From positions 25,334-89,333 of the forward strand of contig JAZKCY010000001.1 of NCBI GenBank assembly GCA_040387855.1: 64,000 bases of DNA, given 5' to 3'. Positions 11,743 through 40,541 of the stretch are shown here, one piece after another; the first letter of the stretch is position 1; each line of letters starts with the position of its first letter. The stretch comes from Patescibacteria group bacterium. Its GTDB lineage: Bacteria > Patescibacteriota > Minisyncoccia > Phycocordibacterales > JAKAEA01. Below the pieces are notes generated by a model. That model made no database searches and was not told the origin of the DNA. It worked only from the letters and a program-made list of their open reading frames with translations. The translations under genes were made by a program, and so were the position numbers.

Positions 11743-14154
11743 TTATTTAGATTCCATATCACCCCAGGTTGGTCCTACTGCCTTATTGGCAATTATTGGC
11801 ACACCTTTTGTCTGCTCTAACGTAAGTGTCGTTTGCATAATATCTGGAATAATATCAAACGCTTCCTGAATTTTATCTTCCTTCACTTCAAAAATAAGTT
11901 CGTCATGTACTTGCAAAAGCATTCGCACATCATCTGTGAGTTTCTTTTTCTCAAGAGCTTCATTAATTCTGATCATCGCAACCTTAATCATATCAGCTGA
12001 TGTCCCTTGAATTGGTGCATTAATTGCCATTCGTTCTGCAGATGCTCGAATAAATGGTAAGTGAGAATTGATACCTTCAAAATAGCGGCGACGACCAAGC
12101 ATTGTTTCAGTGAATCCAGTACGTGCGGTTTCTTTTTTCACATCTTCAAGATACTGTGCAATTCCAGTAAATGTAGAAAAGTATTCATTATAAAATCTCT
12201 GGGCTTCTTCTCGAGTTCCTCCAAGATTTGCTTTGAGGGCATTAACGCCCATACCATAGAGAATTCCGAAGTTGATAATCTTTGCTTTACGTCGCATTTC
12301 TTTATCAACTTTTTCTGCAGGTACTTTAAAAACCTGAGCAGCAACTTCAGTATGTACATCTCTTCCAGATTTAAAAATTTCTATAAGCTTTTCGTCGCCA
12401 GAAATGACAGCAGCTAAACGAAGTTCGATCTGTGAGTAATCAAAAGCTACTAGCTTGAAGCCTTTTTCTGCAACAAATCCCTTTCTGATCTTTCTACCAA
12501 GCTCTGATTTAATAGGAATGTTCTGGAGATTAGGATTTTGAGATGACATACGGCCTGTAACTGCGCCGTTTTGTACAAATGTTGTGTGAAGCCGTCCATC
12601 TGCTTCTACAAGAGTTGGTATACTATCTATGTAGGTAGACAAAAGCTTCTGCAATTCTCGATACTGCATTATGCACTGAATAATAGGATGTAAATCGGCG
12701 AGCTTCTCAAGTTCTGATTCTCGAGTCGACATTGCTCCCCCGGCAGTTTTCTTTTGACCCTTGGCTTTTAGACCCATTTTCTCAAAGAGAACAACACCAA
12801 GTTGCTTTGGAGAATTTATATTAAATTCTTCACCAGCATGTTCCCAAATTTCTTTTTGGAGTCTGTCTAAATTAGTGTGATATTCAATACTTAAATTTTT
12901 AAGATAAATAGTATCCACCTTAATCCCCCGGGTATGCATAGCATCAAGCACAGGAAACAATGGAGCTTCTATTTCATTAAATATTTTTGAAAGACCCTTC
13001 TTTTCTATTTCAGCTAAAATAATCTTTCGAGCTTCAGAAAACTTTTTTGTCTTAGCAAATGCATAGATATCTTCAAGTTCTGGATTAGCAAGATTTGAAT
13101 CTATAACCCATAGGGCCAAAGCTGTTTCTCGGAGTTCTTGAGCATCTATCTCTTCTTTATCTTTTTCTTCTTCCTGTGGTGTTTCTATTATGTCTCCAAA
13201 CGCGTCGGTGTGACCCAAAACTTCTTTTACTCTAATACTCAAAGAGCGAAATTCAAGCTCAGTAAAAAGCTTTTCAACAGCATCCATATCTACAGCCTCT
13301 TTCCATTCTTTTTCAGGAATTTTAAAATCAATTGGTGCGTCACGTCGAATAGTAGCTAGCATTTTTGAGAACAATGCTTCTTCTTCCCCATCTTCTAAAA
13401 GCTGTGCTATACGTGGAGATACTCCTGCTTCTTTTTGAAACTTTTCTTTGTCTTTTTTAAGAGCTACATACATTTCTTCTATAGTTCCAAACTTTTGAAT
13501 AAGAGTTGTTGCTGTTTTTTCTCCAATGCCTTTGATACCAATAATATTGTCTGAGGTATCACCACGTAATCCTTTAAAATCAGTGAGAAACTTTGGTAGA
13601 AATCCAAAGCGTTCTACCACGGCTGCCTCATCATATAAAATAGTATCTTTAATTCCCTTTCGAAGCGTGTAGACCTGCACTTTGCCATCTTTCACAAGCT
13701 GCATGGTATCCATATCACCCGATGAGATAACAATTTCATACTCATCATTTTTATCCATGATTTCACAAATAGTACCGAGCATGTCGTCGGCTTCAAATCC
13801 AGGCTTATCATATATAGGTATAGAAAACGCCTCAAAAATCTTTCGAGAACTTTTCATTTGGGCCACAAGTTCTGGATCTGCTTTTTTACGTCCAGCTTTA
13901 TATTCTTTATAAGCTTCGTGTCGGTATGTGGCCTGAGGAAGATCGTAACAGGCAATAACATAGCTTGGCTTAAGTTCTTCAATGATCTTCATGATCATTG
14001 TTGATAGACCATAAAGAGCTCCTGTTGGCTCACCTTTTGAAGACGCAAAGTCGGGCATTGCATGATACGCTCGATGCAAAATTGCATGAGCATCGAGAAG
14101 GATAATTCGCTTTTTATCTGAGAGTTTTGGTCGTGGCATTGAGGTATTATACAA
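11743..14154 (-). CDS. polA: DNA polymerase I
   Basis: 803 aa; 5'-3' exonuclease N-terminus (ILLDAHAILHRAYHA), polymerase motifs (DYSQIELR, QVHDELIFE); no obvious 3'-5' exonuclease DxE motif. Confidence 0.9.
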   Translation of the reverse strand: MYNTSMPRPKLSDKKRIILLDAHAILHRAYHAMPDFASSKGEPTGALYGLSTMIMKIIEELKPSYVIACYDLPQATYRHEAYKEYKAGRKKADPELVAQMKSSRKIFEAFSIPIYDKPGFEADDMLGTICEIMDKNDEYEIVISSGDMDTMQLVKDGKVQVYTLRKGIKDTILYDEAAVVERFGFLPKFLTDFKGLRGDTSDNIIGIKGIGEKTATTLIQKFGTIEEMYVALKKDKEKFQKEAGVSPRIAQLLEDGEEEALFSKMLATIRRDAPIDFKIPEKEWKEAVDMDAVEKLFTELEFRSLSIRVKEVLGHTDAFGDIIETPQEEEKDKEEIDAQELRETALALWVIDSNLANPELEDIYAFAKTKKFSEARKIILAEIEKKGLSKIFNEIEAPLFPVLDAMHTRGIKVDTIYLKNLSIEYHTNLDRLQKEIWEHAGEEFNINSPKQLGVVLFEKMGLKAKGQKKTAGGAMSTRESELEKLADLHPIIQCIMQYRELQKLLSTYIDSIPTLVEADGRLHTTFVQNGAVTGRMSSQNPNLQNIPIKSELGRKIRKGFVAEKGFKLVAFDYSQIELRLAAVISGDEKLIEIFKSGRDVHTEVAAQVFKVPAEKVDKEMRRKAKIINFGILYGMGVNALKANLGGTREEAQRFYNEYFSTFTGIAQYLEDVKKETARTGFTETMLGRRRYFEGINSHLPFIRASAERMAINAPIQGTSADMIKVAMIRINEALEKKKLTDDVRMLLQVHDELIFEVKEDKIQEAFDIIPDIMQTTLTLEQTKGVPIIANKAVGPTWGDMESK

Positions 14155-15349: not shown

Positions 15350-17026
15350 ATGGTTGTCTTTGACGAAGAAAAGCAGGATAAAAAATTAGAAGATTTGCAT
15401 CGCGATGAAGAAGAAGGATTAGCTAAAGCTTTATCAACACGATACGGTATTCATTATATAGATCTCACGACTGTTGCTATTAATAGTGATGCCCTTCGCG
15501 TGGTAAAAGAAGAAGATGCTCGAGACGCAACGCTTGCGGTTTTTGATATCGTTGGTAAAAAAATTAAAGTTGCTGTCCTTGCGCCTGGAAATCCAAAGAC
15601 TGAGGCTATTCTTGAGGATCTTAAAACTAAGGGATACATTCCAACCCTCTACATGGTTTCTATTGATAGTCTTAAAAAAGTATGGGTTCGCTATAAAGAC
15701 CTTTCTTTTTCTTTTGAAACAAAGGGTGGAGCTCTTGATATTTCTAATGACGAAATCACAAACTTCCTTAAAGATGTGCACAGTGTTGAGGATGTAAAAC
15801 GACTTATCGACACTACCCTCACCCAAAAGAAGGGCTACAAGATTTCACGACTTCTTGAAATCATGATTTCAAGTGCTCTTGCCTTGAAAGCTTCTGACCT
15901 TCATATTGAACCTGAAGAAAAATTTGTCCGTATTCGATTTCGTATCGACGGCGTGCTTAATGACTTTTTGCACTTTGATCACGATACCTTCCGACTGCTC
16001 CTTTCTCGAATCAAATTGATTGCAGGAATGAAACTCAATCTTAACGGTGCTCAAGACGGCCGATTTAGTATTATGCTTGAAGATACTGAAATTGAAATTC
16101 GAGCATCAATTTTGCCAGGAGCATATGGAAACTCTATAGTGCTTCGAGTTCTCAATCCTAGTGCTATCAATGTATCACTCGAATCGATGGGTATTCCTCC
16201 AAAGCTTCTAGAAATACTATTAAGAGAAGTAGAAAAACCGGAAGGCATGATCCTAACCACAGGCCCTACCGGTTCCGGAAAAACCACTACCCTCTATGCT
16301 TTTTTACGCAAGGTTTTTAGCCCTGAGATTAAAGTTATTACTATTGAAAACCCCGTTGAATATCACCTTCCAGGCATCGTGCAAACACAGATTAATCCAG
16401 ATACTGGATACACATTCTTAGAAGGTTTGCGTTCAGCACTTCGACAAGATCCCGACATTATCATGGTTGGAGAAATTCGAGATACAGAGACAGCAGAAAT
16501 CGCAGTAAACTCAGCGCTTACTGGCCACTTAGTGTTCTCTACCCTTCACACAAATAATGCAGCTGGAACATTTCCACGTCTTATAGACCTTGGAGTAGAT
16601 CCAAAAATTCTCACATCAGCACTTTCTGTTTCAATGGCACAACGATTGGTGCGACGACTTTGTACCTGTGCTGAAGAAATGCCAATAGAAGGCCGAGATA
16701 AAATTATTATTGATAGAATCTTGGGGACTATAAAAAATGTGAGTGAATACTTGCCTACAATTCCTACTATTATTGGAAAAGCAAAAGGCTGTGAAAAATG
16801 TAACTTCACAGGATATAAAGGACGCGTGGGAGTATTTGAAGCAATTCTTCGAAGTGAAAAAGTTGAACAAGCTATTCGAGAAAATCCAAGTGAGCGAGAA
16901 ATTTGGAAAGCTGCTGAAGATCAGGGTATCTTAAATATGAAACAAGACGGAATTATTAAAATTCTCCAAAAAATGACGTCTATTCAGGAGTTAGAACGAG
17001 TGATCGACCTTGAAGCCGAGCTCTAG
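15350..17026 (+). CDS. pilB: type IV pilus assembly ATPase PilB (GspE family)
   Basis: Walker A GPTGSGKTTTL, motif TLHTNNAAG, C-terminal tetracysteine CTCA...CEKC, N-terminal GSPII_E-N-like domain. Confidence 0.85.
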   Translation: MVVFDEEKQDKKLEDLHRDEEEGLAKALSTRYGIHYIDLTTVAINSDALRVVKEEDARDATLAVFDIVGKKIKVAVLAPGNPKTEAILEDLKTKGYIPTLYMVSIDSLKKVWVRYKDLSFSFETKGGALDISNDEITNFLKDVHSVEDVKRLIDTTLTQKKGYKISRLLEIMISSALALKASDLHIEPEEKFVRIRFRIDGVLNDFLHFDHDTFRLLLSRIKLIAGMKLNLNGAQDGRFSIMLEDTEIEIRASILPGAYGNSIVLRVLNPSAINVSLESMGIPPKLLEILLREVEKPEGMILTTGPTGSGKTTTLYAFLRKVFSPEIKVITIENPVEYHLPGIVQTQINPDTGYTFLEGLRSALRQDPDIIMVGEIRDTETAEIAVNSALTGHLVFSTLHTNNAAGTFPRLIDLGVDPKILTSALSVSMAQRLVRRLCTCAEEMPIEGRDKIIIDRILGTIKNVSEYLPTIPTIIGKAKGCEKCNFTGYKGRVGVFEAILRSEKVEQAIRENPSEREIWKAAEDQGILNMKQDGIIKILQKMTSIQELERVIDLEAEL

Positions 17027-24150: not shown

Positions 24151-25248
24151 TTATTTGTTAATCGGCATGACGAGATATAAGAAAGAACGTTCGTTAACGC
24201 CTCTTATTACAAGTGGTCTGTTTAAACCGTTAAATTCCAAGGCAACTGAATCTGAATCTACAGACTGGAAGCAATCTACTACGTATTTGTAATTATAGTT
24301 TATCTCAAGATCGTCACCTTCACATACAGCTTCTAGTGCCGTGCTGTTTTCTCCAACATCAGCATTTCTCGTACTCAACATAAACTTCTTTTCTGAAGGA
24401 AGAATCTTAAAATTGAGTTTATTAAACTTATCAGAGAAAAGAGTAGCTATTTTTAAAGCTTTAATAAGATCTTGTTTTAATACAGTACAGACTGTTTTAT
24501 ATTCTTTTGGAATAATTTGTCGATAATCTGGAAATACACCATCTACAACTCGTGATGTTAAATACGTACCATCAAACTTAAATGAAATTTGGTTTTTTGT
24601 AAGAGCAACTTCAACATCTCCATGACATGCATCAAGAATTCTAATAATGTCATTGATACTTTTAACCGGAATTAGAAGCTGACCAATATCCTGAGCATTT
24701 TTCATTTTTACTTTCTTTTCCGCCAAACGGAAAGAATCGGTAGCAACGAACACTACCTGATCATCGTCAGAGTAGATATACACGCTTGAGAGCTCCGGTT
24801 TCATGCTCGAGGTAGCAGATGCATAGCTTACAGATTTGATGCCCTTCACGAGGTCGCGAGCGGCCAATAACAGTTTCTTATCCCCTTCGAGCATAGGAAT
24901 AGTAGGAAAGTCATCATGGTTAAGAGATTTAATAACAGTAGTGTTTGAATCAGTAGTTACTTTTACATTTCCTTCTATCACTTCAAGAGTAATAAGGTTA
25001 CTTGAGATATTTGATAGAAAATTTGAAATGATTGATCCAGGAATAGCTACTTTACCTTCTGTATAGACTTTTACAGGAATAGTGATTTCAATTCCAAGAT
25101 CCATATTTGTAGATCGAATAATAAGATCATGTTTTGTTGCTTCAAAGAGAATACAACTTAAAACCGGTAGGGTTAAATTTTTCCCTGTGATCTTATCTGC
25201 TTTGCTTATCGCATCAACCAATTTCTCTCGTGCTGCTTCGATCTTCAT
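24151..25248 (-). CDS. dnaN: DNA polymerase III beta sliding clamp
   Basis: 365 aa, three-domain clamp, MKIEAAREKLVDAISKADKITGKN typical DnaN start; immediately downstream of dnaA. Confidence 0.9.
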   Translation of the reverse strand: MKIEAAREKLVDAISKADKITGKNLTLPVLSCILFEATKHDLIIRSTNMDLGIEITIPVKVYTEGKVAIPGSIISNFLSNISSNLITLEVIEGNVKVTTDSNTTVIKSLNHDDFPTIPMLEGDKKLLLAARDLVKGIKSVSYASATSSMKPELSSVYIYSDDDQVVFVATDSFRLAEKKVKMKNAQDIGQLLIPVKSINDIIRILDACHGDVEVALTKNQISFKFDGTYLTSRVVDGVFPDYRQIIPKEYKTVCTVLKQDLIKALKIATLFSDKFNKLNFKILPSEKKFMLSTRNADVGENSTALEAVCEGDDLEINYNYKYVVDCFQSVDSDSVALEFNGLNRPLVIRGVNERSFLYLVMPINK

Positions 25249-25521: not shown

Positions 25522-26898
25522 TTAGAACATTGATCTAATCTGCTTCAATTCCTGAGCTAAGATATGATTTGTCTTTAGCTCATTTTTAATCTTTTCACAT
25601 GAGTGAATAACTGTTGTATGGTCTCTTCCGCCCAACTTTTGGCCTATTGATGGATATGAAACATCAAATTCTTCTCGAAGAACATACATTATGAGCTGAC
25701 GAGGCCGAACTACTTCTTTTCGGCGTGTTTTCTCATAAATGCTCGCTTCCTCTATATTATAGAAGTCAGCAATGGTTTTAATTACATCCTTAACAGATAC
25801 CGCTTTTTTGGGTTTAGCGTTATTTTTAATGATATTTTTAACCTCATTTACATTAAGTTCCCTTCCCCGAAGCTGAGACTGCATAAGTACAGAATTTAAG
25901 GCACCTTCAAGCTCTCGAATGTTTCCATCTATAGTGGAAGCCAAATATTCGATAATATCAGGAGAAAGATCGACATTTTGAAGCTTTGCTTTTGCACGTA
26001 AAATTGCAGCACGTGATTCTTGATCTGGATGAGGTACATCAATAATCATTCCCGCTCCGAAGCGTGATTTTAAGCGCTCTTCTAGGTTTGGAATATAGTT
26101 TGGGTGCTTATCTGATGAGAAAATAATCTGCTTATTATCATCGTATAAGTTGTTAAATAAGTGGAATAATTCTTCTTGAGACTTTTCTTTGTTAGAGAAA
26201 AACTGAATATCATCCATGATAAGTACATCATATTTACGATATTTTTCTTTAAAGTTATTTATTTTGTTATTTTGAAGTGAATTTATGTAATCAAGTGAAA
26301 ATTTTTCCGATGTTACATAGAAAATCTTCTTAGATGTAGCCGTTTTTAAGTAATTTCCTATTGCTTGAATAAGATGAGTCTTTCCTCGACCTGTATCTCC
26401 ATATATAAAGAGTGGATTATACGTAATTCCAGGTTTCTTTATTACTGCCTGACTTGCAGCATAAGCAAGTTCATTAAATGGCCCTACTACGAATGATTCA
26501 AAGGTATAGCGAGGATTTAGATTATCATCTTTATTAATATAGAAATCATTGAGTGGGAGCTCAGAAGTAGGGTTTGTTGGGAGGGTGTTTCTTTGAGATT
26601 GCTGAATTTCTTGTCTCTTTGGTTCATCTTTTGAAACTACATATTCTAAACCTCGAATATCAGCATTGTTTCGAAGGCATTTCAAGATAAATTTATGAAA
26701 TTTATTATAGAGCCAATCTTTTACAAACACATTAGGAACGCTTAGATACACCATTCCATCATCAACTCTAGATATGTGTGTATCTTTAAACCACATATTG
26801 AAGTTAGCCTTAGAAACTTCAATTTCAATTTCAGCAAGTGCACTTTCCCATAATCTCTTGGTGTCCATAATATGTTTTAGGAAAATTAGTGTGGACAT
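25522..26898 (-). CDS. dnaA: chromosomal replication initiator protein DnaA
   Basis: AAA+ Walker A GDTGRGKTHL, DnaA C-terminal HTH, N-terminal domain; start placed at ATG 26898 preceded by GGAGG (the track's longer ORF begins at an overlapping TTG). Confidence 0.9.
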   Translation of the reverse strand: MSTLIFLKHIMDTKRLWESALAEIEIEVSKANFNMWFKDTHISRVDDGMVYLSVPNVFVKDWLYNKFHKFILKCLRNNADIRGLEYVVSKDEPKRQEIQQSQRNTLPTNPTSELPLNDFYINKDDNLNPRYTFESFVVGPFNELAYAASQAVIKKPGITYNPLFIYGDTGRGKTHLIQAIGNYLKTATSKKIFYVTSEKFSLDYINSLQNNKINNFKEKYRKYDVLIMDDIQFFSNKEKSQEELFHLFNNLYDDNKQIIFSSDKHPNYIPNLEERLKSRFGAGMIIDVPHPDQESRAAILRAKAKLQNVDLSPDIIEYLASTIDGNIRELEGALNSVLMQSQLRGRELNVNEVKNIIKNNAKPKKAVSVKDVIKTIADFYNIEEASIYEKTRRKEVVRPRQLIMYVLREEFDVSYPSIGQKLGGRDHTTVIHSCEKIKNELKTNHILAQELKQIRSMF

Positions 26899-27026
26899 AG
26901 TATATACCTCCAAGAATTTTTCGAGAACTTGTGCACAGTCTATAAGTATGTTGATAACTTGTGGATAAGTGAAAAACCCTTGATAACCATTTACAATTTC
27001 ACACTTTTATTCTATACTCCCCTATT
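26899..27026. promoter_or_regulatory. oriC-proximal region between dnaA and rpmH with DnaA box and AT-rich tracts
   Basis: perfect DnaA box (tgtggataa, 26960-26968, complement of TTATCCACA), AT-rich repeats ttgataac; divergent dnaA and rpmH promoters expected here. Confidence 0.6.
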
Positions 27027-29505: not shown

Positions 29506-31551
29506 TTATATCGCAGGTTTACCAAATCCTTCACGAACACGGTTGATAACTTGCTTGGCTGTGTAGTTTGGTCTCCAGTTATTAATATCATTTTTCATTG
29601 CTTCTTGTATAAGTGAGAGATAACCATCATTAGCATATTCAGGATGTGGATAGGTCACGCCAGTTATAGGAGAACTAACTGTTAATACATTACGAGCATC
29701 AACAATTCCTGTTGGGAATGAGTTTTGGGTAACAATAATATTACTTGAAGATTCCTTCCCTGTTCCACCGGGAGTAATACTTCCTTCTACCAATAGTGCT
29801 TTTGACCAGTTAAAGACGATATTATCTTTCAATGTTAAGTCATGAATTCCTACTGCAAGATGTGCATAATCCCCCACTCCACTTTCCAATTGTATTGCAG
29901 GAAAATTTGATCCAGTTCGGTTGTTTGCAATAATATTTCCTGAAGCCACAGTATTACCCCCTGGTTTAATATTTCCAAAAATAATACCAAACCCTCGCGG
30001 TTCACTGCCAATATTCTTAGCACCCACCATTACGTTGTTTGTAATTCGTCCTACTACACCATTTGGATGTCCTGTTCCACTACCGTTAACGAGCCCAAAT
30101 GATAAGTGGATTGCATTGTCATAAAAGAGGTTGTTTTCTACCACCCCACCTGCTCGTGCCTGAAGACCATGGCTTGATGCAAAAGCAAAGATGTTATTTC
30201 TGACCGTTACATTCCAATTGAGTGCATGAATATATGCATTGTGATTTCTTGTGGTTTCCCCTCCTCCATCGAGACGTCGTCCATTACTAAAAAACACATT
30301 ATCTTCTAATAGAATTCCATCAGTCTGATCTATATATAAACCTGAAGAGTCTCCGCCTGTTTTTGAATGACTATTTGTAATAACTGAGCGTCTCAATTTG
30401 AAGTTTCGGTTTTTATTATTGATTACAGAACCATCATTAGTTGTCATATTCAAGGTGATTCCCATTCGGAACCCTTCGATATAGGCATCCTCAATTGTTA
30501 CATCGTGAACTCCCTGACATCCTTCCATCGCAATTCCTTGATTGTTTGAAGTAGTTGTATGAAGATGAATACTTTGGATGAGGATATTACCAGTATTTGA
30601 GCAAATTCGAATTCCAGTTCCTTGTCCAGGAATTGAAATCTTTGGACGTGGTCCTGAACCATACGCCAACACCTTAACACCGTTTCTTCCGGTAAGATCA
30701 AATCCGGATGTCCATGTATCTCCTCGTTTGAGGTAGATAAAATCAGGGTTCTTTGTAAGAGCTTTGTTTATGCTTGAAATTGGGGCTGCCTCGGTTCCGG
30801 GATTACTGTCATTACCCGATGTGCTAACATATACTTTTTTACTTGTTGGTGATGGTGTGACTTGGGTAAAATTGTTTGAGTATGCTGGTTCTGGTTGTAC
30901 TGGTGGAGGTGTGTATGATGGACCTGGTTGTGTTCCACCTGGAATTGTTCCCCCTCCTCCTGTATTAGGGTTATAAACACCTGTGCTCCCTCCTGGAAGG
31001 CCCAACGGTCCACCACTGCTATCGCCAGGTACGTAGATTCCTGCATCTTCAGGATTATATTTAGGTAGTTCATATGATGCGGGTGTTCGTGGATTCAACT
31101 TTGGTCGAGGTACTCCTGGAACCTGTCTTCCTACACTTTCAGCGCCCTTTGAAACTGTATCTGGGTTAAGAGAAGAAGGGTTGAGTGTATAGATTATGAG
31201 CCAAGATCCAATTACGAGAATCAATCCCCACAAGGTTCTTTTAATTATATCTTTACCTTCTCTTTTACCTGTAATAGCATCACTCGACATATAGAGAATT
31301 CCACCATATACAAGCATAAATACAGCAATAACTCCTGATATGCTCACGAGAATTCTGTACATCGAATTTGCATAGACACTCAATCCATTTTCAGCAGGTA
31401 ACGTTGCTCCAGTTTCTGTAGGAAGTGGTGCTAGGAATTGATATGCTTCTCCTACTTCCCCAGCTGCAAATACATGAGCGATTGGAAAAAGTAGTGCACA
31501 CACTACTCCTATAACTACAATCTTAAAACTATTATTGAGTAGGTGTTTCAT
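29506..31551 (-). CDS. fusion protein: VirB2/TrbC-pilin-like N-terminus, Pro/Gly-rich linker, C-terminal right-handed beta-helix domain
   Basis: signal peptide then two hydrophobic helices separated by a short loop (ILVSISGVIAVFMLVYGGILYM, LWGLILVIGSWLIIYTLNP); about 120-aa P/G-rich linker; beta-helix with NHNAYIHALNWNVTVRNNIF, HGLQARAGG, paralogous to 5154-8150 and 8227-10932. Confidence 0.6.
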   Translation of the reverse strand: MKHLLNNSFKIVVIGVVCALLFPIAHVFAAGEVGEAYQFLAPLPTETGATLPAENGLSVYANSMYRILVSISGVIAVFMLVYGGILYMSSDAITGKREGKDIIKRTLWGLILVIGSWLIIYTLNPSSLNPDTVSKGAESVGRQVPGVPRPKLNPRTPASYELPKYNPEDAGIYVPGDSSGGPLGLPGGSTGVYNPNTGGGGTIPGGTQPGPSYTPPPVQPEPAYSNNFTQVTPSPTSKKVYVSTSGNDSNPGTEAAPISSINKALTKNPDFIYLKRGDTWTSGFDLTGRNGVKVLAYGSGPRPKISIPGQGTGIRICSNTGNILIQSIHLHTTTSNNQGIAMEGCQGVHDVTIEDAYIEGFRMGITLNMTTNDGSVINNKNRNFKLRRSVITNSHSKTGGDSSGLYIDQTDGILLEDNVFFSNGRRLDGGGETTRNHNAYIHALNWNVTVRNNIFAFASSHGLQARAGGVVENNLFYDNAIHLSFGLVNGSGTGHPNGVVGRITNNVMVGAKNIGSEPRGFGIIFGNIKPGGNTVASGNIIANNRTGSNFPAIQLESGVGDYAHLAVGIHDLTLKDNIVFNWSKALLVEGSITPGGTGKESSSNIIVTQNSFPTGIVDARNVLTVSSPITGVTYPHPEYANDGYLSLIQEAMKNDINNWRPNYTAKQVINRVREGFGKPAI

Positions 31552-32552: not shown

Positions 32553-33686
32553 TTACGCTGCTCTTTTATTCCCCAATGCTGGCATAGGTCGAGATGTCTG
32601 TGGTCGAATTTGCATTGGTTTACCCTGTTGTTGAGGTTGTCGAATATTTTGGAGTGGTTGTTGACGCATCATGGGACGCTCAGACGACTGAGAAGATCGT
32701 GACCCACTATTTCCATCATAATAAGAAGTATTTTCTCGCTGCCGTTCAACTGCATAATCATCTTCTTCATCTTGCATGCCTTGAAGTTGCTGATTATATT
32801 CAATAGCCATCTGCCGTTTTTGCTCATTTTTAGCATGCATAGCAGCTGCTTCTGCTTTCATTTTTATCATTTTATTCCTTGTACGTGTAGCAATGAAGGT
32901 TGTCATTATCGTACCTACAATAGTCCAAGGAATCCAACTAATAAATGGCAGCCAGCTCAATATTGAACATATAATATATACACCAAAGATTTTTGGCATC
33001 AATATTAATTTCCCAAACTTTTTTAAAAGTACGGCAACCCACAGAATAGAATACATAATACCTGTAAGGGTACCCATAAGTGGTAGAAGTCCGATTGCCC
33101 AGAAAATAACTGAGCAAACTGCCAATCGAGCAGTAATCGACATGTTTTTCATGAAGCCTTTGGGAGTAAAATGGATGTGTTTAGCCATTTTCTTAGCAGC
33201 ACCGCGCACTCGTGATCCAGCACTCTTTATGTTTTTTCCAGCATTTTCGGCAGATGCACTGAGTTTTTTTGTGGCTTTTGCTGTTTCTTCTGCTAATTTT
33301 CCTCCAGCCTCCAGTCCTTTTCCTGCAAATTGTGCACCGATTGAGGCTCCTTTACCCAATGCTCCTACAGCAATCATAGGCACACCCACGACAGCACCTA
33401 CTGCAGTAGCACTAGCAGCTTTACCTGCATTCATGAGTGCATCACTGCCTGCTCCAGTGGCTTTTGCTGCTGCTTGTACACCTTTACCAACGTTTTTCAC
33501 TCCCTTTCCTGCAATCTCTCCTGCTTGGCTTGCATGTTTTGCAGTTGCAGCTGAATGTTGCACCATTGAACCAACACGTTCAACGTTTCTGCCTGCATGA
33601 TCTACACGTTGAGACATGTGATGAGCTTCCCGTTGGCGTGGGCTTTTTTCAAACTCAGATGGTTCTGATCGTTTTATTCCATCCAT
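32553..33686 (-). CDS. membrane protein with A/G/K-rich N-terminal region, three or four TM helices, Gln-rich C-terminus (T4SS accessory candidate)
   Basis: low-complexity AGKGVKNVGKGVQAAAKATGAG region; TM segments ITARLAVCSVIFWAIGLLPLMG etc.; directly downstream of the VirB4 gene. Confidence 0.4.
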   Translation of the reverse strand: MDGIKRSEPSEFEKSPRQREAHHMSQRVDHAGRNVERVGSMVQHSAATAKHASQAGEIAGKGVKNVGKGVQAAAKATGAGSDALMNAGKAASATAVGAVVGVPMIAVGALGKGASIGAQFAGKGLEAGGKLAEETAKATKKLSASAENAGKNIKSAGSRVRGAAKKMAKHIHFTPKGFMKNMSITARLAVCSVIFWAIGLLPLMGTLTGIMYSILWVAVLLKKFGKLILMPKIFGVYIICSILSWLPFISWIPWTIVGTIMTTFIATRTRNKMIKMKAEAAAMHAKNEQKRQMAIEYNQQLQGMQDEEDDYAVERQRENTSYYDGNSGSRSSQSSERPMMRQQPLQNIRQPQQQGKPMQIRPQTSRPMPALGNKRAA

Positions 33687-33696
33687 AGACTAATGT

Positions 33697-35502
33697 TTAA
33701 TTTCCCAATTCTTCTTTTGCTTTTCGAATAGCGAGGATTTGAGATGGATCTGAGGTAATGATTTGATCTTCTGTATATGAAGCAATAATTTTGACAGCTA
33801 CGTGTTTTACACCGGCAAAGAAGATCCCTTCCCCTACTCCTGATTCTAAAAGAAGATATTTTTCTTCATCTGTAAGATTGAACGTTGCCTGAAGCTTATC
33901 AATAGATGTTGGAGACTGCTTCAAAAGCATTTGGATAGATGAGTTGGTAATAATTGGCATACCGTAAGGAGATTTTAGGAAGTCATCTACGTCTTGAGTA
34001 ATTGTCGCGAGTCCAAGATAATATTTTCGTCCTCGTTTTGCTAAAGAAAGCAAGAATGAAGCCGTATCTTCTGATTTCATCATCCACCAAGCCTCGTCGA
34101 TAACAAGCAATCGCTTTTTAATATCACGTCGAATTGCATTCCAAATGTAGTGAGTCACAATATACATTGCGATTGGTTTCAATTCGTCTTCCATGTCTCG
34201 CACTGAGAACACTATGAACTTTTTGTTCATATCTACGTTTGTAGGACGGTTGATAAATCCTGACCATGTTCCTTTTGTGTATTTGGTCATTCGTTGAGCC
34301 AGTGACTCCCCTCCTTCCATACCTGCAAGCACCAATTCGAAGTCTGAAAGTAGAGGTGGTTCTATATTTGAGAAATCTGATTCAGGTGTAATATCTTTAA
34401 GAGCATATGTTTCGGTAATTGCTCGATCAATAATTGCATCTTCTTCAGGTGAAAGACCTCCAAGCATGATTCGGAAGAGTCCTACGAGGTTAATGATATT
34501 TGATCGCAATACTGATGAAGATGATTCATCTTCATGGATAGGTGGAAGATCAAATGGATTGATATGGTGCTCTGAGTTTAAAGAAATATTGAAATAGCGG
34601 CCTCCAGTAGCTTCTGCAAGGTATTCATATTCTCGCTCTGGGTCAATTACAATCACATCAGCATCAAACATTAATGTACGCACAATTTCGAGCTTTGTAG
34701 CGTATGATTTACCAGATCCAGACTTAGCAAATGTGATTGAGTTGTAGTTTTCAAGAGAAAAACGATCAAACAACACAAGACTAGAATTATGACGGTTAAT
34801 TCCATAGAGTATTCCCTTATCTGAAGTAAGATCGAATGATACGAATGGGAAAATACTTGAAAGTGGTGTTGAGTTAATTTTAGAATTTACGGCAAGACCA
34901 TCGTTTCCAAGTGGGAGCATACTTTTAAAGCCTTGTTCTTGTTGAAACAGAGCAGGTTTAATGTATACAAGCTTTGATTCAAGAATAGATTTAATTTCTG
35001 ACTCTATCTTATCGAGTTCTGCATCAGATTCACCATAAATAGACAAATAAAGGCCAACATCAAAGAGTTTCTCTTGTGCTTGTTGAAGATTGTCTCGAAG
35101 GTTTTCAAGATCCTGATATGCAGTATCAAGCATAGGGTCACGTACTAGGCCCTTCTCTTCTCGAATAGAAATCTGACTTTGAATTTCTGCTACCTTCTTT
35201 TGAAAGTGTCGGAGGATTGTAGCTGTCTCAATTGGGTGAATAAAAATAGAAATATCAAAAATCCGATCGAGATTAATGATTGGAGAGAACCAGTTTTCAG
35301 AAAGAAATCGTGGATATGAAATAACAAAAAATGTTCGAACTATCTTGTCCCCTAAGTTTAGGGATCGAGGTGAAATTTTTAATGCAGAAGGAGCAATAAT
35401 ATCTTTAAGTTCTAATGCAGATGCTTCGTAAATTTGCTGAGGTAACGCAGAACTAATATCAGCCTGTGAATCTTTTTTATTAAATAAGTTAAATAGTCCC
35501 AT
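33697..35502 (-). CDS. VirB4/TrbE-family ATPase, C-terminal 601-aa portion (second half of a split VirB4)
   Basis: Walker A AKSGSGKS, Walker B LLVIDEAWWM, conserved FQQEQGF and IAPSALK..P..L..GDK motifs matching Gram-positive VirB4 homologs (Tn916 Orf16 / TcpF / PrgJ type). Confidence 0.8.
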   Translation of the reverse strand: MGLFNLFNKKDSQADISSALPQQIYEASALELKDIIAPSALKISPRSLNLGDKIVRTFFVISYPRFLSENWFSPIINLDRIFDISIFIHPIETATILRHFQKKVAEIQSQISIREEKGLVRDPMLDTAYQDLENLRDNLQQAQEKLFDVGLYLSIYGESDAELDKIESEIKSILESKLVYIKPALFQQEQGFKSMLPLGNDGLAVNSKINSTPLSSIFPFVSFDLTSDKGILYGINRHNSSLVLFDRFSLENYNSITFAKSGSGKSYATKLEIVRTLMFDADVIVIDPEREYEYLAEATGGRYFNISLNSEHHINPFDLPPIHEDESSSSVLRSNIINLVGLFRIMLGGLSPEEDAIIDRAITETYALKDITPESDFSNIEPPLLSDFELVLAGMEGGESLAQRMTKYTKGTWSGFINRPTNVDMNKKFIVFSVRDMEDELKPIAMYIVTHYIWNAIRRDIKKRLLVIDEAWWMMKSEDTASFLLSLAKRGRKYYLGLATITQDVDDFLKSPYGMPIITNSSIQMLLKQSPTSIDKLQATFNLTDEEKYLLLESGVGEGIFFAGVKHVAVKIIASYTEDQIITSDPSQILAIRKAKEELGN

Positions 35503-35515
35503 TCTCGTTAATATG

Positions 35516-36154
35516 CTAGTTTATTTTGATTGGCTTTTCTGTGTCTCCAGGATTGAATAACTTATAGAAAAGCTCTACTACCTCTTCTGTTCCGAGCTGC
35601 ACGACTCTAATCCCGCATCGCACAAGTCCCTGCTCTACAACTGATACACGCTCTTCGAGCTGTGCTCTATTTTCTTCATATATTTCATCATCCCGGCGCT
35701 TTACTTCTGCGGCTCCCTTACTTCGCTTGAAAAAGCTTAATGGACTAGCCCCCTGACTAATAGAAGGGCTATAAGGAACAACAATAAAGAAACTCTTAGT
35801 CATAATATTTGTAGTTTCAGTAAAGTTCTTTATGAAGTTTATATATTCTTGGGTCTGAATTTTCAAAAGATCAATAACCTGTTCTTTAAGGCGGTTCTCA
35901 AGAAGGGCTAGATATGGCCGGATATCAAGCTTTCGTGATTGTACAAAGATCTGAATAGAAAAATCTAATGAGTTTAAAAAGTCCTGGAACTGATAGAGAG
36001 TGGCATTTTGCTCTTCTTCAGATTTCAACGCAAAGTTTACTGAAGATGCTAAAACAATAGCTCGCATAGATCCATCTTTAAGGATTGCATATCCATCACG
36101 TATTTCTTTAATGGGAACAAATTCTTGAGTTGCCTTGCCAGGTTGTGAAGCCAT
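35516..36154 (-). CDS. VirB4 N-terminal domain encoded as a separate 212-aa ORF
   Basis: FVPIKEIRDGYAILKDGSMRAIVLASSVNFALKSEEEQNATLYQFQDFLN parallels the conserved N-terminus of Gram-positive VirB4 proteins; stop TAG 13 nt upstream of the ATPase ORF start, different frame. Confidence 0.6.
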   Translation of the reverse strand: MASQPGKATQEFVPIKEIRDGYAILKDGSMRAIVLASSVNFALKSEEEQNATLYQFQDFLNSLDFSIQIFVQSRKLDIRPYLALLENRLKEQVIDLLKIQTQEYINFIKNFTETTNIMTKSFFIVVPYSPSISQGASPLSFFKRSKGAAEVKRRDDEIYEENRAQLEERVSVVEQGLVRCGIRVVQLGTEEVVELFYKLFNPGDTEKPIKIN

Positions 36155-36203: not shown

Positions 36204-36656
36204 TTACTTTTGGAGTGGACTCTTACTTCCCTCTTTTGTAACGGGATTTAAGGCTTCTTTTGTATCGAGACTCCAGCTTAAATCTTTTAGTTTACTATCT
36301 GAAAGCTTTGGAATAAATGCAGATGTTGGATCTGAATCTACAGCTGCATCTTTTTTAGCTGCCATTATTTGGCGTTGTTCATGTCTCCAGATATAGAGTT
36401 TGGGATTTACTAAATAATTAAATGCTGATTCTAATACTACAATGAGAGGCTTGTTGTTAATTCTATAGAATGCAAACATTCCTGAAATTGCGCAGATTGG
36501 AAGTATAACTACGAGTGCTAGTAAGAAGCTTGGTATAAAAAGATAGGCAATAACAGACATCCCTGCCCCTCCGGCAAGATAAATAAACTGTTTGAGGGTG
36601 AGTGGCCCAAAGATCTTATCTTCAACTTCTATAAATTGAGGAATTTGAAACCGCAT
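36204..36656 (-). CDS. PrgI/VirB3-like small membrane protein
   Basis: 150 aa; conserved F.PLTLKQF.YLAGGAG core followed by two TM helices; immediately upstream of VirB4 as in Gram-positive T4SS. Confidence 0.6.
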   Translation of the reverse strand: MRFQIPQFIEVEDKIFGPLTLKQFIYLAGGAGMSVIAYLFIPSFLLALVVILPICAISGMFAFYRINNKPLIVVLESAFNYLVNPKLYIWRHEQRQIMAAKKDAAVDSDPTSAFIPKLSDSKLKDLSWSLDTKEALNPVTKEGSKSPLQK

Positions 36657-36696: not shown

Positions 36697-37575
36697 TTAT
36701 GCTGTGGGTGGTTCTCTGTAGGGATCAGATCCATCTCTAGGTTTATTCTTCGCGCCCAAGTTCATTTCTTCTGTTGGAACTCGTGATGTTCCTTGGAGTT
36801 TTGATTGAAATATACTTGTAGGTGTAGGACCTGTTGGGATATTTTGTGGTGGCTCAGGATTAATTCGTTGTATTGGAACTTGAACTGGTGTTGATACTGG
36901 TTTTACAGGTTCAATATGTGGAGTTGGGATTGGCGCCGGTCCTGACATAAAGTGATCTCTCAATAAGTGGTCTGAAGGAGTGGATGGAAATACGGGTGGA
37001 GGTGTTGGAACGCCTGTATTTATAGTGATTTTAGGATATGTTGTGCTAGGACTTGAGTGTGCTGTATCAGTTGAAGGTCTGTTTTTGGGCATTAATGGCA
37101 CTGGGCCATCAGTCTTATATCCCCCAACGGTTGGTGAGTCTGGAAAGTTAAGAGTGATTTTTGGTCGAGGTGCAGTTTGTTGTGTAGAAGATGGTGAAAC
37201 AGCACCTGTACTTAGTGGATTCACTGCTTGTGCAGTATCCCCTATTTCTCCCATAGCCTCAGCCATGAGCATAAATACTGGTTCTAAAAGTATTGCATCG
37301 ATATCAATGAGAAGATCTTGCGCATCATCCTCATTAAGATTGTATCCATTTTGAATTTCAACAAGAAATTCTTGAACCGGCATGATTCCAACAAGAAGTG
37401 CAAATACTAGTTGATCAAAATCTCCTAACTTAATTGGGGGAATGTAGAAATCATCTGCAATACCGTAAATTTCTGATGTTACTTCTTCAGACATAATGAA
37501 TTCCTGAAGTGATGGAGGAAGTTCATTAAATGCTGCATCTAGTTGTTCGGAGGTGTATTTCATAATTATAGCCAA
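36697..37575 (-). CDS. hypothetical protein with globular N-domain and Pro/Thr-rich C-terminal tail
   Basis: 292 aa, no TM helices, long P/T/S-rich low-complexity C-terminus; overlaps VirB6-like gene end by 10 nt (operonic). Confidence 0.4.
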   Translation of the reverse strand: MAIIMKYTSEQLDAAFNELPPSLQEFIMSEEVTSEIYGIADDFYIPPIKLGDFDQLVFALLVGIMPVQEFLVEIQNGYNLNEDDAQDLLIDIDAILLEPVFMLMAEAMGEIGDTAQAVNPLSTGAVSPSSTQQTAPRPKITLNFPDSPTVGGYKTDGPVPLMPKNRPSTDTAHSSPSTTYPKITINTGVPTPPPVFPSTPSDHLLRDHFMSGPAPIPTPHIEPVKPVSTPVQVPIQRINPEPPQNIPTGPTPTSIFQSKLQGTSRVPTEEMNLGAKNKPRDGSDPYREPPTA

Positions 37576-40541
37576 TTTTCCTTACCTTTACCTGTGAGTT
37601 GTTTGTGGATGTCTCTCATTCGTTTGAGCTCTACCTCTGCAGTCTTTCGTGCCTTGAGTAATGCCTTTGAAGCATCATCTGTACCAGTAACCCCAGTACC
37701 TGCTGCAACAGCTGCTTCAAGCTGAGCTCGTTCACGAGAAGGTGTACCCGCACTACTGTCACTATATTTATCAGCAGTCTTTTTAAGGTGTTGACCAATT
37801 TCAAGTATTTGTTCTGGAGTGAGTTTTCCTGACTTACGTGCAGCTTCAGCTTGTTCATACGTAAGAAGGGTCGCGACTTTTTCTTGTGTGAGAGTTCCTG
37901 CTTTCAATCCCTTGATCATGTTTGGATTAGCCTTAGCATCAGTAATGATTTTCTTGATTTCTTCTTCAGATTTATTATCTGCAACTGCATCATCAAGTGC
38001 ATCCTGAAGATCTGCGAGCTTGTCTTCATCTGATTTCTTGGTGTTTCTCATTTGATCCATATGTTTCTGAGCTACTCTACTGTAGCCAGCCATACCTCCA
38101 CCACCTCGAGCTACCGTGATTGCTCCACGTGCAACACCAGCAGTAGCTCCTACTCCCGCTCCAAGTGCTGCACCTGCACCACCACCACCTGCTATTTGTC
38201 CTGCTACAGCACCTGTTGCAGTATAGTTAACAACACGAGCTATCTGTTGTTTCCAAGTCTTATTTCCAAGCTGTGCAGCATATGTATTTCGTTTTTCCTC
38301 AATATTTCGAACAGCTCGTCGTTGGAGTTTCTTAAGATTGTCTTCTTCTGTTTTAATTGCTTTGCTTGCTTTCTCAACTTGTTCAGGTGTTGCCCCGGCA
38401 GCAATCGCCTTTCTTTCAACGTCCTTAAGATCCTTAATTGCTTTTTGTGATGCCTCAATATTATTCCAATCATCACCACCAATCATTCCTTTGGATCCAA
38501 AGCGTGCTCGTATTGCTGCACCCACACGAGTTGCACCACCTCGATCTCTTCGAGCCTCTATCTTTCGATCTTGTTCTTCTGCTCTACCAGCATAACCTCC
38601 CTTGTTGCCTCCCTTTCCTAGCACTTTGCTCATACCACCAACATTTCGGAGATCGTATTCTGAAGATGCTCGCTTTTGAAGAAGTTCCAAACGCTGCTTT
38701 GCTCGTGAATCCCCTGCTTTTGCAGCAAGTTCAAGCGTTGATTTTTCTTTACCTAATCTATATTGAGCATATCTACCTACAGTATTTCTACCTGCAGATG
38801 CTCCCAATCCAGCGGTAGCCATACCTGCAGCTCCTCGTGCACCCCGCGCTGCTCCCCGAGCTCCGTTTATTGTACCTTGTCCCATGCGTCGAACTGCATT
38901 TGATGAAATACCTTGTACCTTATTAAATGCTGCTCCTGTCATTCCTCCAGCACCAGATGCAACTGATGTTGCTAAAACTGCTGCTGCATTTATAAGACCA
39001 ATAAGTAATACGAAATTAAAGATTTGTGATGCTTCGTTTGTTTCACCTGTTTTTGGTGAAAATCCGCTTGCAAGTGTTCCTGCAATTTGTGTTGATCCAG
39101 AACTGGTATTTACATCAGTTTTGCCTTTAATTTTAAGTTGCTCAGCTAAAATGAATACTAATAGAATGAGAATCATGTACAGTGGTGCGAATACCAACTG
39201 AGACATAAGAGTACTCCACCACTTCTTTGCCCAACCATTTGTTGCAGGAAGAATATAACCGAAATATCCTATAGGAGAAAGGATAAGAAGGAAAAGTAAT
39301 ACAATAAATCGAATGAGTAAGAGTGCTGAAATATAGAGAAATGTTAACCCTACGGCAACGAGAAATACAGATCCACCAATTCCTAAAATAAGAATTGAGT
39401 TCCATCCTCCAGTCAAAAGATTAGCATGGCCGTTTTTGGGATCATACAGAGATGTAATGTTTAAGTACCCTGCCATTTTATTAGAAATATTTCCAATAGT
39501 ATCTGCATTTCCTGTCCCCTCAGTACTTTTTGCAAATTCTTTGTGGAACTGTGTCGTGAGAATATTCGATCCGTCGATGAGAACTTTTGTAAAAAACAGA
39601 CTGAAGTTGATAAGAATTCCAAAGATAATCAGATTACGAAGTACTCGTTTTGTATCAATATTGCTAAATCCTAAAATAGTGTTAACTGCTATATATATGA
39701 GTATATATATGAGCGTCATATTGCAGAGATCTCGAATAAGTGCCCAGCCATAATTAATACCACTCAAAGTCTGAACCTTGTCAGCCATTGTGGTGATCGT
39801 AAATTGAATTGTGTAGTTTAAAGCAAGACCTGTAATACCTACAAACCATGCTGCTGCTGAAATTGCAGTGAATGCCATCCAGGCTGCGACATATTTAAGA
39901 CAGGCTTCAAGATTTACTGGAGTTGTACTCAATTCGATTCTACATGCTGCTTCAGCAAGGGCCATACCCTGTCCAGCTTTATCAAATTTTGCACCCGATT
40001 CATCAGTTGGATCTATCATCTTGGCCATCTGATTTCTATCGTTGGTACCATTCGCAAGTGCAGAATTAACCCAATTAATGTTAGTAGCCATTTGAGCAGG
40101 ATCTTGGGTGATCTTGAAATCCTGCATGTCATTCATATAATTGGTAAGTGCCTGCATATGAGGTCTCATTCTCTCTGCAAGATCTTTATTTCCAGACGTA
40201 ATAGCATTATTGTATTGCTTTGCTGAGGTTACATAAAGATTGTGAACTTTGTCATATTGAGTTAAAAACTGCATACACATATCATTGGGAGGATTTGTAC
40301 AGTGTGGTCGTACTTCATATCCATGGGCAAATCTACCACCTTGATTTCCTCCTTTTTGTTCCCCTTCAATTAATGCTCCGGGTATTAGAACTCGTGCACC
40401 TCCAATAGTGTCTTGATAACCAGGTACTTTATTTCCTATACGGAAGTCATAGAAAATGTCAGCTTGTGCACTATTTGCTCCAGCAACAAAGAGTGTAATT
40501 GCTAGTACGAATATATTAATGAGTAGAAATAATTTCTTCAT
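37566..40541 (-). CDS. VirB6/TrbL-like polytopic membrane protein with extracellular N-domain and ~450-aa disordered A/G/K/R-rich C-terminal tail
   Basis: signal peptide; at least 6 TM helices incl. LSPIGYFGYILPATNGWAKKWWSTLMSQLVFAPLYMILILLVFIL; C-terminus low complexity with coiled-coil segments. Confidence 0.6.
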   Translation of the reverse strand: MKKLFLLINIFVLAITLFVAGANSAQADIFYDFRIGNKVPGYQDTIGGARVLIPGALIEGEQKGGNQGGRFAHGYEVRPHCTNPPNDMCMQFLTQYDKVHNLYVTSAKQYNNAITSGNKDLAERMRPHMQALTNYMNDMQDFKITQDPAQMATNINWVNSALANGTNDRNQMAKMIDPTDESGAKFDKAGQGMALAEAACRIELSTTPVNLEACLKYVAAWMAFTAISAAAWFVGITGLALNYTIQFTITTMADKVQTLSGINYGWALIRDLCNMTLIYILIYIAVNTILGFSNIDTKRVLRNLIIFGILINFSLFFTKVLIDGSNILTTQFHKEFAKSTEGTGNADTIGNISNKMAGYLNITSLYDPKNGHANLLTGGWNSILILGIGGSVFLVAVGLTFLYISALLLIRFIVLLFLLILSPIGYFGYILPATNGWAKKWWSTLMSQLVFAPLYMILILLVFILAEQLKIKGKTDVNTSSGSTQIAGTLASGFSPKTGETNEASQIFNFVLLIGLINAAAVLATSVASGAGGMTGAAFNKVQGISSNAVRRMGQGTINGARGAARGARGAAGMATAGLGASAGRNTVGRYAQYRLGKEKSTLELAAKAGDSRAKQRLELLQKRASSEYDLRNVGGMSKVLGKGGNKGGYAGRAEEQDRKIEARRDRGGATRVGAAIRARFGSKGMIGGDDWNNIEASQKAIKDLKDVERKAIAAGATPEQVEKASKAIKTEEDNLKKLQRRAVRNIEEKRNTYAAQLGNKTWKQQIARVVNYTATGAVAGQIAGGGGAGAALGAGVGATAGVARGAITVARGGGGMAGYSRVAQKHMDQMRNTKKSDEDKLADLQDALDDAVADNKSEEEIKKIITDAKANPNMIKGLKAGTLTQEKVATLLTYEQAEAARKSGKLTPEQILEIGQHLKKTADKYSDSSAGTPSRERAQLEAAVAAGTGVTGTDDASKALLKARKTAEVELKRMRDIHKQLTGKGKENWL

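Follow-up and report, generated by a model that had tools for sequence, protein, structure and literature searches.

Is the gene for VirB4, the ATPase of type IV secretion systems (T4SS), broken, frameshifted or naturally divided when it is found as two adjacent open reading frames (ORFs)? This question is raised by a locus on contig JAZKCY010000001.1 of a Patescibacteria group bacterium, within the 64,000-nucleotide (nt) stretch of DNA analysed here (the window). Both ORFs lie on the minus strand. The upstream ORF (35516-36154) encodes 212 residues and the downstream ORF (33697-35502) encodes 601, giving 813 in sum. The junction reads ...AAA ATA AAC TAG catattaacgaga ATG GGA...; TAG (35518-35516) stops the first ORF, ATG (35502-35500) starts the second, a spacer of 13 nt (35503-35515) separates them on the minus strand, and the two ORFs lie in different frames. 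A first-pass annotation, made from the sequence alone, had described this arrangement and quoted several motifs from it, and inspection of the sequence confirmed the arrangement and located every motif. VPIKEIRDGYAILKDGSMRAIVLASSVNF and YQFQDFLN are found in the 212-residue protein. IAPSALK (residues 36-42), FQQEQGF (186-192), the Walker A motif GSGKS (262-266; 34705-34719, minus strand) and the Walker B region VIDEAW (467-472; 34087-34104, minus strand) are found in the 601-residue protein. We consider it very probable that the pair is a natural two-gene VirB4, in which the motor is encoded as two polypeptides from adjacent cistrons of one operon.

The 601-residue protein scored 378.9 bits against the NCBIfam model NF045971 (VirB4-like, CD1110 family; cutoff 325) and each of the two ORFs has more than 8000 homologues, which places the VirB4 identity proposed in the first pass far beyond chance. 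The match covers model positions 181-732 of 752; positions 1-180 are not in this ORF and are supplied by the upstream 212-residue ORF. On the TIGR00929 and TIGR02746 models likewise, the large ORF starts at approximately position 170-190. Pfam P-loop_TraG matches the large protein with E 2.6e-26 (92.7 bits, cutoff 25.8), residues 254-558 align with TrwK 446-741 (E 8.3e-9), and residues 228-584 correspond to the VirB4 C-terminal ATPase domain (PDB 4ag5, E 2.6e-42). The Walker A and Walker B motifs that identify a VirB4-type T4SS ATPase are both present in this RecA-like C-terminal domain; a complete N-terminal domain in the same polypeptide is not. Because the ATPase domain begins only at residue 228, the cut falls ~200 residues into the canonical VirB4 N-terminal domain and not at the border of that domain with the ATPase core. 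The first ~225 residues of the large protein still belong to the N-terminal domain. The first-pass description of an N-terminal domain separate from the ATPase core does not hold in this respect, as the large ORF contains the rest of VirB4, namely the second half of the N-terminal domain as well as the RecA-like ATPase domain.

The 212-residue protein was more difficult to place. Residues 10-132 align with positions 2-126 of the CD1110 VirB4 model (NCBIfam) and the protein also matches positions 102-239 of the VirB4 model from Mycoplasma integrative and conjugative elements (ICEs). Residues 8-126 align with positions 14-142 of the TrsD model (NCBIfam NF041427, E 4.5e-7), below its cutoff. A profile of the protein compared by hhalign with TrsD of pSK41 aligned over nearly the full length (E 5e-5). 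The protein has the features of TrsD/TraD in the broad sense used in the searched passages of Quinonero-Coronel et al. (Microb Genom 2025, PMC12102498), being 212 residues long, homologous to the VirB4 N-terminus and encoded between a VirB3-like gene and virB4. On these comparisons it is a remote homologue of the NF041427 TrsD/TraD proteins and not a member of that narrow subfamily. Reading the small ORF as a VirB4 N-terminus, as the first-pass annotation did, is upheld by the homology; that it belongs with the known TrsD family had escaped notice. The Pfam family PF26593 ('TraC-like') is assigned in precomputed annotation to a 100%-identical protein (P0001) and to all 120 best homologues. A search of the ORF itself against a local copy of Pfam, even at E ≤ 10, gave no match, PF26593 included.

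A structural model of the 212-residue protein was built with AlphaFold2 (AF2) from 56 diverse homologues, with a predicted local distance difference test score (pLDDT) of 89.4. When this model was searched with Foldseek, the top 14 PDB matches were all TrwK/VirB4 chains of R388 and further matches were noise; the best match had E 1e-3, probability 1.0 and a query template modelling (TM) score of about 0.5. The profile of the protein aligned with the TrwK sequence by hhalign over residues 14-142 (E 0.055), which is weak and suggestive only. The 212-residue protein is accordingly identified as the first alpha/beta subdomain in the N-terminal domain of VirB4, here detached. Judged from the alignments, the two ORFs are colinear with one single-chain VirB4, the large one lacking what the small one supplies. 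We note that some stand-alone homologues of the small protein (P0263, P0288 and P0323) bear a long disordered C-terminal tail of 100-230 residues, rich in P, Q, T and A; the window protein has no such tail.

Among the 150 best cluster representatives, one protein (P0318, 797 residues) contains both parts. Its residues 6-214 match the 212-residue protein (46% identity) and its residues 230-796 the 601-residue protein (55%), with a short in-frame linker joining the two. Its gene lies behind PrgI and near dnaA in its metagenome-assembled genome. When P0318 itself was used as query, 116 of the 120 best matches were single chains of 775-807 residues, and wherever a name is given this fused clade (locus L085, 544-2937, and proteins P0391-P0509; 775-807 residues) is Candidatus Colwellbacteria. 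In a neighbour-joining (NJ) tree of the N-terminal domain (90 taxa, 216 columns, Poisson distances, 200 bootstraps) the fused proteins were monophyletic in 181 of 200 bootstraps and nested among split forms in 177. The tree favours a secondary fusion in the Colwellbacteria-type clade. An AF2 model of P0318 aligned end to end with TrwK (8rtd_O; E 3.7e-25, TM 0.63, 806 columns). A 600-residue protein 88% identical to P0318 (P0409) was considered as a recent fission and rejected. At its locus (L088, 1282-3470) a gene of the fused type has lost residues 90-192 and shifted frame, with N-domain residues still attached to the ATPase ORF; it is a broken gene or a misassembly, in contrast to the clean split.

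Several observations weigh against the two ORFs being the halves of one VirB4. On NF041427 the 212-residue protein reaches 29.9 bits, against a cutoff of 200 and 227.6 for pSK41 TrsD itself, and its BLASTP match to pSK41 TrsD is marginal. The profile of 56 diverse homologues matched no PDB chain by sequence. The model of the fused P0318 is only moderate (pLDDT 71, predicted TM score 0.59). The NJ tree is rough, having 216 columns and distant outgroups that do not cluster, thus a fission followed by re-fusion is not proven in its direction. Binding of the 212-residue protein to the 601-residue protein or to PrgI is a proposal drawn from homology and from analogy with R388. Translational coupling, which the first-pass annotation had named as one possibility, is plausible at short spacers, but since relatives have spacers of up to 464 nt and inserted genes between the halves it cannot be obligatory.

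Of the alternatives, the one that survives best, improbable in our judgement, is that the 212-residue protein is an independent accessory factor, that is, a duplicated and diverged VirB4 N-terminus with its own job that is not needed to complete the ATPase. Such a factor would fit with the handling of TrsD in the searched passages of PMC12102498 as a separate component that has 'remote homology' to the VirB4 N-terminus and is given no function, with the Gracilibacteria, whose TrsD homologues are described there as not adjoining virB4, and with the long disordered tails of some homologues; yet the large ORF, starting at around position 181 of 752, has no corresponding region, so nothing is duplicated. 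The fused clade also joins the parts in canonical order, and its model matches TrwK from end to end.

A scan of species-representative genomes yielded 80 loci, 63-77% identical. Most carry the annotation Paceibacterota/Parcubacteria (including Taylor- and Zambryskibacteria), some being labelled 'uncultured Candidatus Saccharibacteria' or carrying no phylum. The junction could be analysed in the 77 loci whose contig spans both parts. In every one of the 77 a stop codon closes the small ORF and an ATG of its own opens the large one. The N-terminus of the large ORF, MG[IL]FDF, is conserved. The spacer ranges from -4 to 464 nt, 4 nt being commonest (20 loci), followed by 1 nt (10) and 5 nt (8), and the frame offsets 0, 1 and 2 occur in 14, 45 and 18 loci. 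The closest relative (L001) likewise has a 13-nt spacer, unrelated in sequence to that of the window. The best 120 database clusters are stand-alone proteins for both the small ORF (68-100% identity; 210-254 residues) and the large ORF (82-100% identity; 598-659 residues). Measured against L001, the small and the large gene have ratios of nonsynonymous to synonymous substitution (dN/dS) of 0.045 and 0.055, with dS near saturation. By these values both halves are under strong purifying selection.

The comparison with orthologues that the first-pass annotation had proposed therefore has a plain result. Close relatives (63-100% identity; all 77 loci) keep two ORFs, and single-chain orthologues are encountered only in the distant clade (46% and 55% identity), where a different in-frame linker and no 1-2 nt difference is found. 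Four alternatives had been left unranked in that annotation; the natural split is strongly supported, while the programmed frameshift, the pseudogene and the sequencing error are all refuted. On the sequences compared, the arrangement is a natural and conserved one and not damage.

That the pair is one 813-residue gene damaged by a sequencing or assembly error or by an inactivating frameshift we regard as having next to no chance of being right. The different frames, the 13-nt gap, a sum of residues typical of VirB4 and the existence of single-chain orthologues in another clade would all suit an error, but the two-gene state recurs in all 77 of 77 species, each assembled independently, and across hundreds of protein clusters that stem from separate projects, the large ORF has its own conserved N-terminus and dN/dS is about 0.05 for both genes. 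A truly broken gene, that of L088, looks different, having lost residues 90-192 and changed frame.

Equally negligible is a programmed ribosomal frameshift or stop-codon bypass yielding one VirB4 polypeptide. In its favour, the frame of the 601-residue ORF is +1 relative to that of the 212-residue ORF, and only a short distance separates stop and ATG. Against it, the downstream frame has a TAA at 35523-35521, which overlaps the final codons of the 212-residue ORF and leaves an interval of only 2-3 nt in which no slippery sequence is present. In relatives the offset may be 0, 1 or 2, and spacers reach 464 nt and can hold entire genes; the sequence of the spacer differs even between the window and its closest relative. 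The conserved shift site, junction sequence and frame relation that characterise programmed +1 frameshift genes of the prfB type are all lacking.

A Shine-Dalgarno-like motif was searched for before the 601-residue ORF and none is present in the spacer. Such motifs (GGAG/GAGG/AGGA) at functional distance are absent before almost all of the 46 long ORFs of the window, whose upstream regions are merely A/T-rich. Since almost no gene of the window has the motif, this suggests that initiation in the organism is Shine-Dalgarno-independent.

The intergenic site is also a place where other DNA is found. In five species a complete gene of 114-134 residues matching PF05635 ('23S rRNA-intervening sequence protein', E 6e-33) sits between the halves (L017, 4625-5045; L026, 4625-5071; L032, 4628-5091; L037, 4649-5059; L068, 2975-3419), and in a sixth only the 3' end of such a gene remains (L030, 2508-2604). 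The gene, of a four-helix-bundle family, has short inverted repeats at both sides and is exactly between the VirB4 genes. It has the appearance of a small mobile element that has inserted at this site repeatedly. Two further spacers (L047, 4628-4691; L074, 4643-4836) contain a palindromic 'GTCATTCCCGCGAAAGCGGGAATCC'-like element resembling repetitive extragenic palindromes or miniature inverted-repeat transposable elements. In three other relatives (L007, L013 and L052) an intein of ~663 residues with a LAGLIDADG homing endonuclease is inserted at the same position in the VirB4 Walker A motif (GSGK|S...HN|SYATK; L007, 4643-8437). The host VirB4 ORF nevertheless stays open in all three (1264-1266 residues).

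How might a motor in two pieces operate? The operon order is the PrgI/VirB3-like gene, then the 212-residue piece, then the 601-residue piece, in a chromosomal and origin-proximal T4SS locus of this Paceibacteria/Parcubacteria genome. The PrgI-family (VirB3-like) membrane protein gene (36204-36656, minus strand; Pfam PrgI 1e-11) is directly upstream of the small ORF, and a PrgI homologue occupies the same place on the same strand in 79 of the 80 related loci. The pair thus adjoins a VirB3-like membrane protein gene within a T4SS locus, as expected of a virB4. In R388, VirB3 wraps round the N-terminal domain of VirB4 (PMC9259494). By homology, the 212-residue protein would pack on the 601-residue protein and complete its N-terminal domain, the two polypeptides associating non-covalently to rebuild the VirB4 protomer. 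By analogy with R388, the small piece may contribute to the PrgI/VirB3-binding surface and so help to dock the ATPase hexamer on the membrane. The tight spacing (13 nt; mostly 1-5 nt in relatives) would favour co-transcription, probably near-equimolar production and possibly coupled translation. The whole machine presumably serves an epibiotic lifestyle, as in Southlakia epibionticum. In that organism, the one system tested, the T4SS is essential for epibiotic growth (PMC10633639).

The same division is seen in systems far removed from the window. In pSK41/pGO1 of S. aureus (MPF_FATA, pGO1 subclass) a VirB3-like trsC is followed, as in the window, by trsD (227 residues), a spacer of 14 nt and trsE (672 residues, DUF87). 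The split points are alike, pSK41 TrsE starting at position 183 of the CD1110 model and the 601-residue protein at 181; the two proteins share 23% identity over 623 aligned columns (E 7e-30). The systems differ in their very low sequence identity and in their setting, pSK41 being a conjugative plasmid with relaxase and coupling protein, whereas the window locus is chromosomal, beside dnaA/dnaN and among housekeeping genes. A tblastn search located homologues of the 212-residue protein on 391 plasmids, mostly of Bacillus (284) and other Firmicutes but also of haloarchaea. On Geobacillus and C. perfringens megaplasmids, PrgI is followed by a protein of ~315 residues containing the domain of the small protein and then by a DUF87 ATPase. 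On a Haloprofundus plasmid a 349-residue protein is separated by 2 nt from a 633-residue 'transfer complex protein'; the start of this ATPase, like that of the 601-residue protein of the window, is just ahead of the conserved APS motif. We note that two large plasmids typed 'non-mobilizable', Geobacillus pGspE55-1 and C. perfringens pJFP838A, agree in the order of TlpA, a sigma-70 factor, PrgI, the N-piece protein and the DUF87 ATPase, a few extra genes being interspersed. The agreement suggests that Firmicute megaplasmids carry a conserved T4SS-like module that has gone unannotated.

Compared with single-chain VirB4 proteins (TrwK of R388, the CD1110 family of Firmicute ICEs and the Colwellbacteria type), the window pair covers the whole length in order and differs in being two polypeptides cut inside the N-terminal domain. 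VirB3-VirB4 fusions (Bacteroides TraG, Campylobacter) likewise re-partition VirB3, the VirB4 N-terminus and the ATPase module among genes, and are cited as a known re-partitioning in the passages of PMC12102498 that were searched. They are opposite in direction, as the membrane anchor is joined there and the first subdomain is split off in the window. No such fusion was seen in the loci examined, nor, according to the same passages, in the Patescibacteria dataset of that study.

The neighbourhood of the pair agrees with what has been published. Housekeeping genes surround the T4SS genes in the window, among them dnaA (25522-26913), dnaN (24151-25248), yidC and ksgA. In the searched passages, Quinonero-Coronel et al. 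describe TrsD homologues adjoining virB4 across Patescibacteria and virB4 often near dnaA/dnaN (there for Paceibacteria). Among the T4SS components recovered from Patescibacteria, TrsD ranks there as the most abundant (2,272 homologues, 1,664 of them associated with VirB4), and the Southlakia epibionticum copy is listed as essential. With PrgI, a TrsD-like gene and VirB4 by dnaA/dnaN, the window locus is one of the Patescibacteria TrsD-VirB4 pairs of that paper. Because it fits that description, the two-gene arrangement counts as already published. A single split VirB4, a shared split point and TrsD-VirB4 fusions are not described in the searched passages.

Other genes of the neighbourhood are less readily assigned. 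Further upstream on the minus strand are a 292-residue proline-rich protein (36697-37575) and a 991-residue polytopic membrane protein (37566-40541), neither with a Pfam match; the latter is a candidate VirB6-like channel subunit. A 377-residue membrane protein (32553-33686, minus strand) also has no Pfam match and has a homologue in just one of the 80 related loci. A protein with a T4SS-pilin-like domain (29506-31551) falls just under the Pfam cutoff (25.2 bits vs 26.6, E 1.8e-5). With a T2SSE/PilB-type ATPase gene (15350-17026, plus strand; E 2.3e-112) at a distance of 17 kb from the T4SS genes, the window carries type IV pilus machinery as well. An 803-residue ORF at 11743-14154 was considered as a second, intact VirB4 and rejected, as it is DNA polymerase I.

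For annotation, such a pair should not be flagged as a frameshifted or pseudogenised virB4, and the 'hypothetical' 212-residue protein should be named VirB4 N-terminal subunit (TrsD-like). To a T4SS specialist nothing here is surprising. The small additions to what was known are the fold of the detached piece, which the model identifies as that of the first VirB4 subdomain, and the re-fused gene carried by the Colwellbacteria-type clade. A bolder proposal has two parts, and we think it unlikely that both are correct. The first is that the TrsD-type subdomain is more than a harmless product of fission and acts as a dissociable adaptor, the cell regulating the docking of the VirB4 hexamer on the PrgI/VirB3 platform by making or turning over this piece separately. 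The second is that the two-piece state is ancestral and selected in a monoderm and archaeal T4SS branch (Patescibacteria, pGO1-type plasmids, Firmicute megaplasmids and haloarchaeal plasmids), single-chain forms such as the Colwellbacteria type being secondary fusions. Taken together, three results (the colinear mapping, the re-fused clade and the split point common to very distant hosts) suggest that TrsD is the first subdomain that VirB4 lacks, and that it probably belongs to the surface to which VirB3 binds. This hypothesis bears on the T4SS that is essential to the epibiotic life of Patescibacteria.

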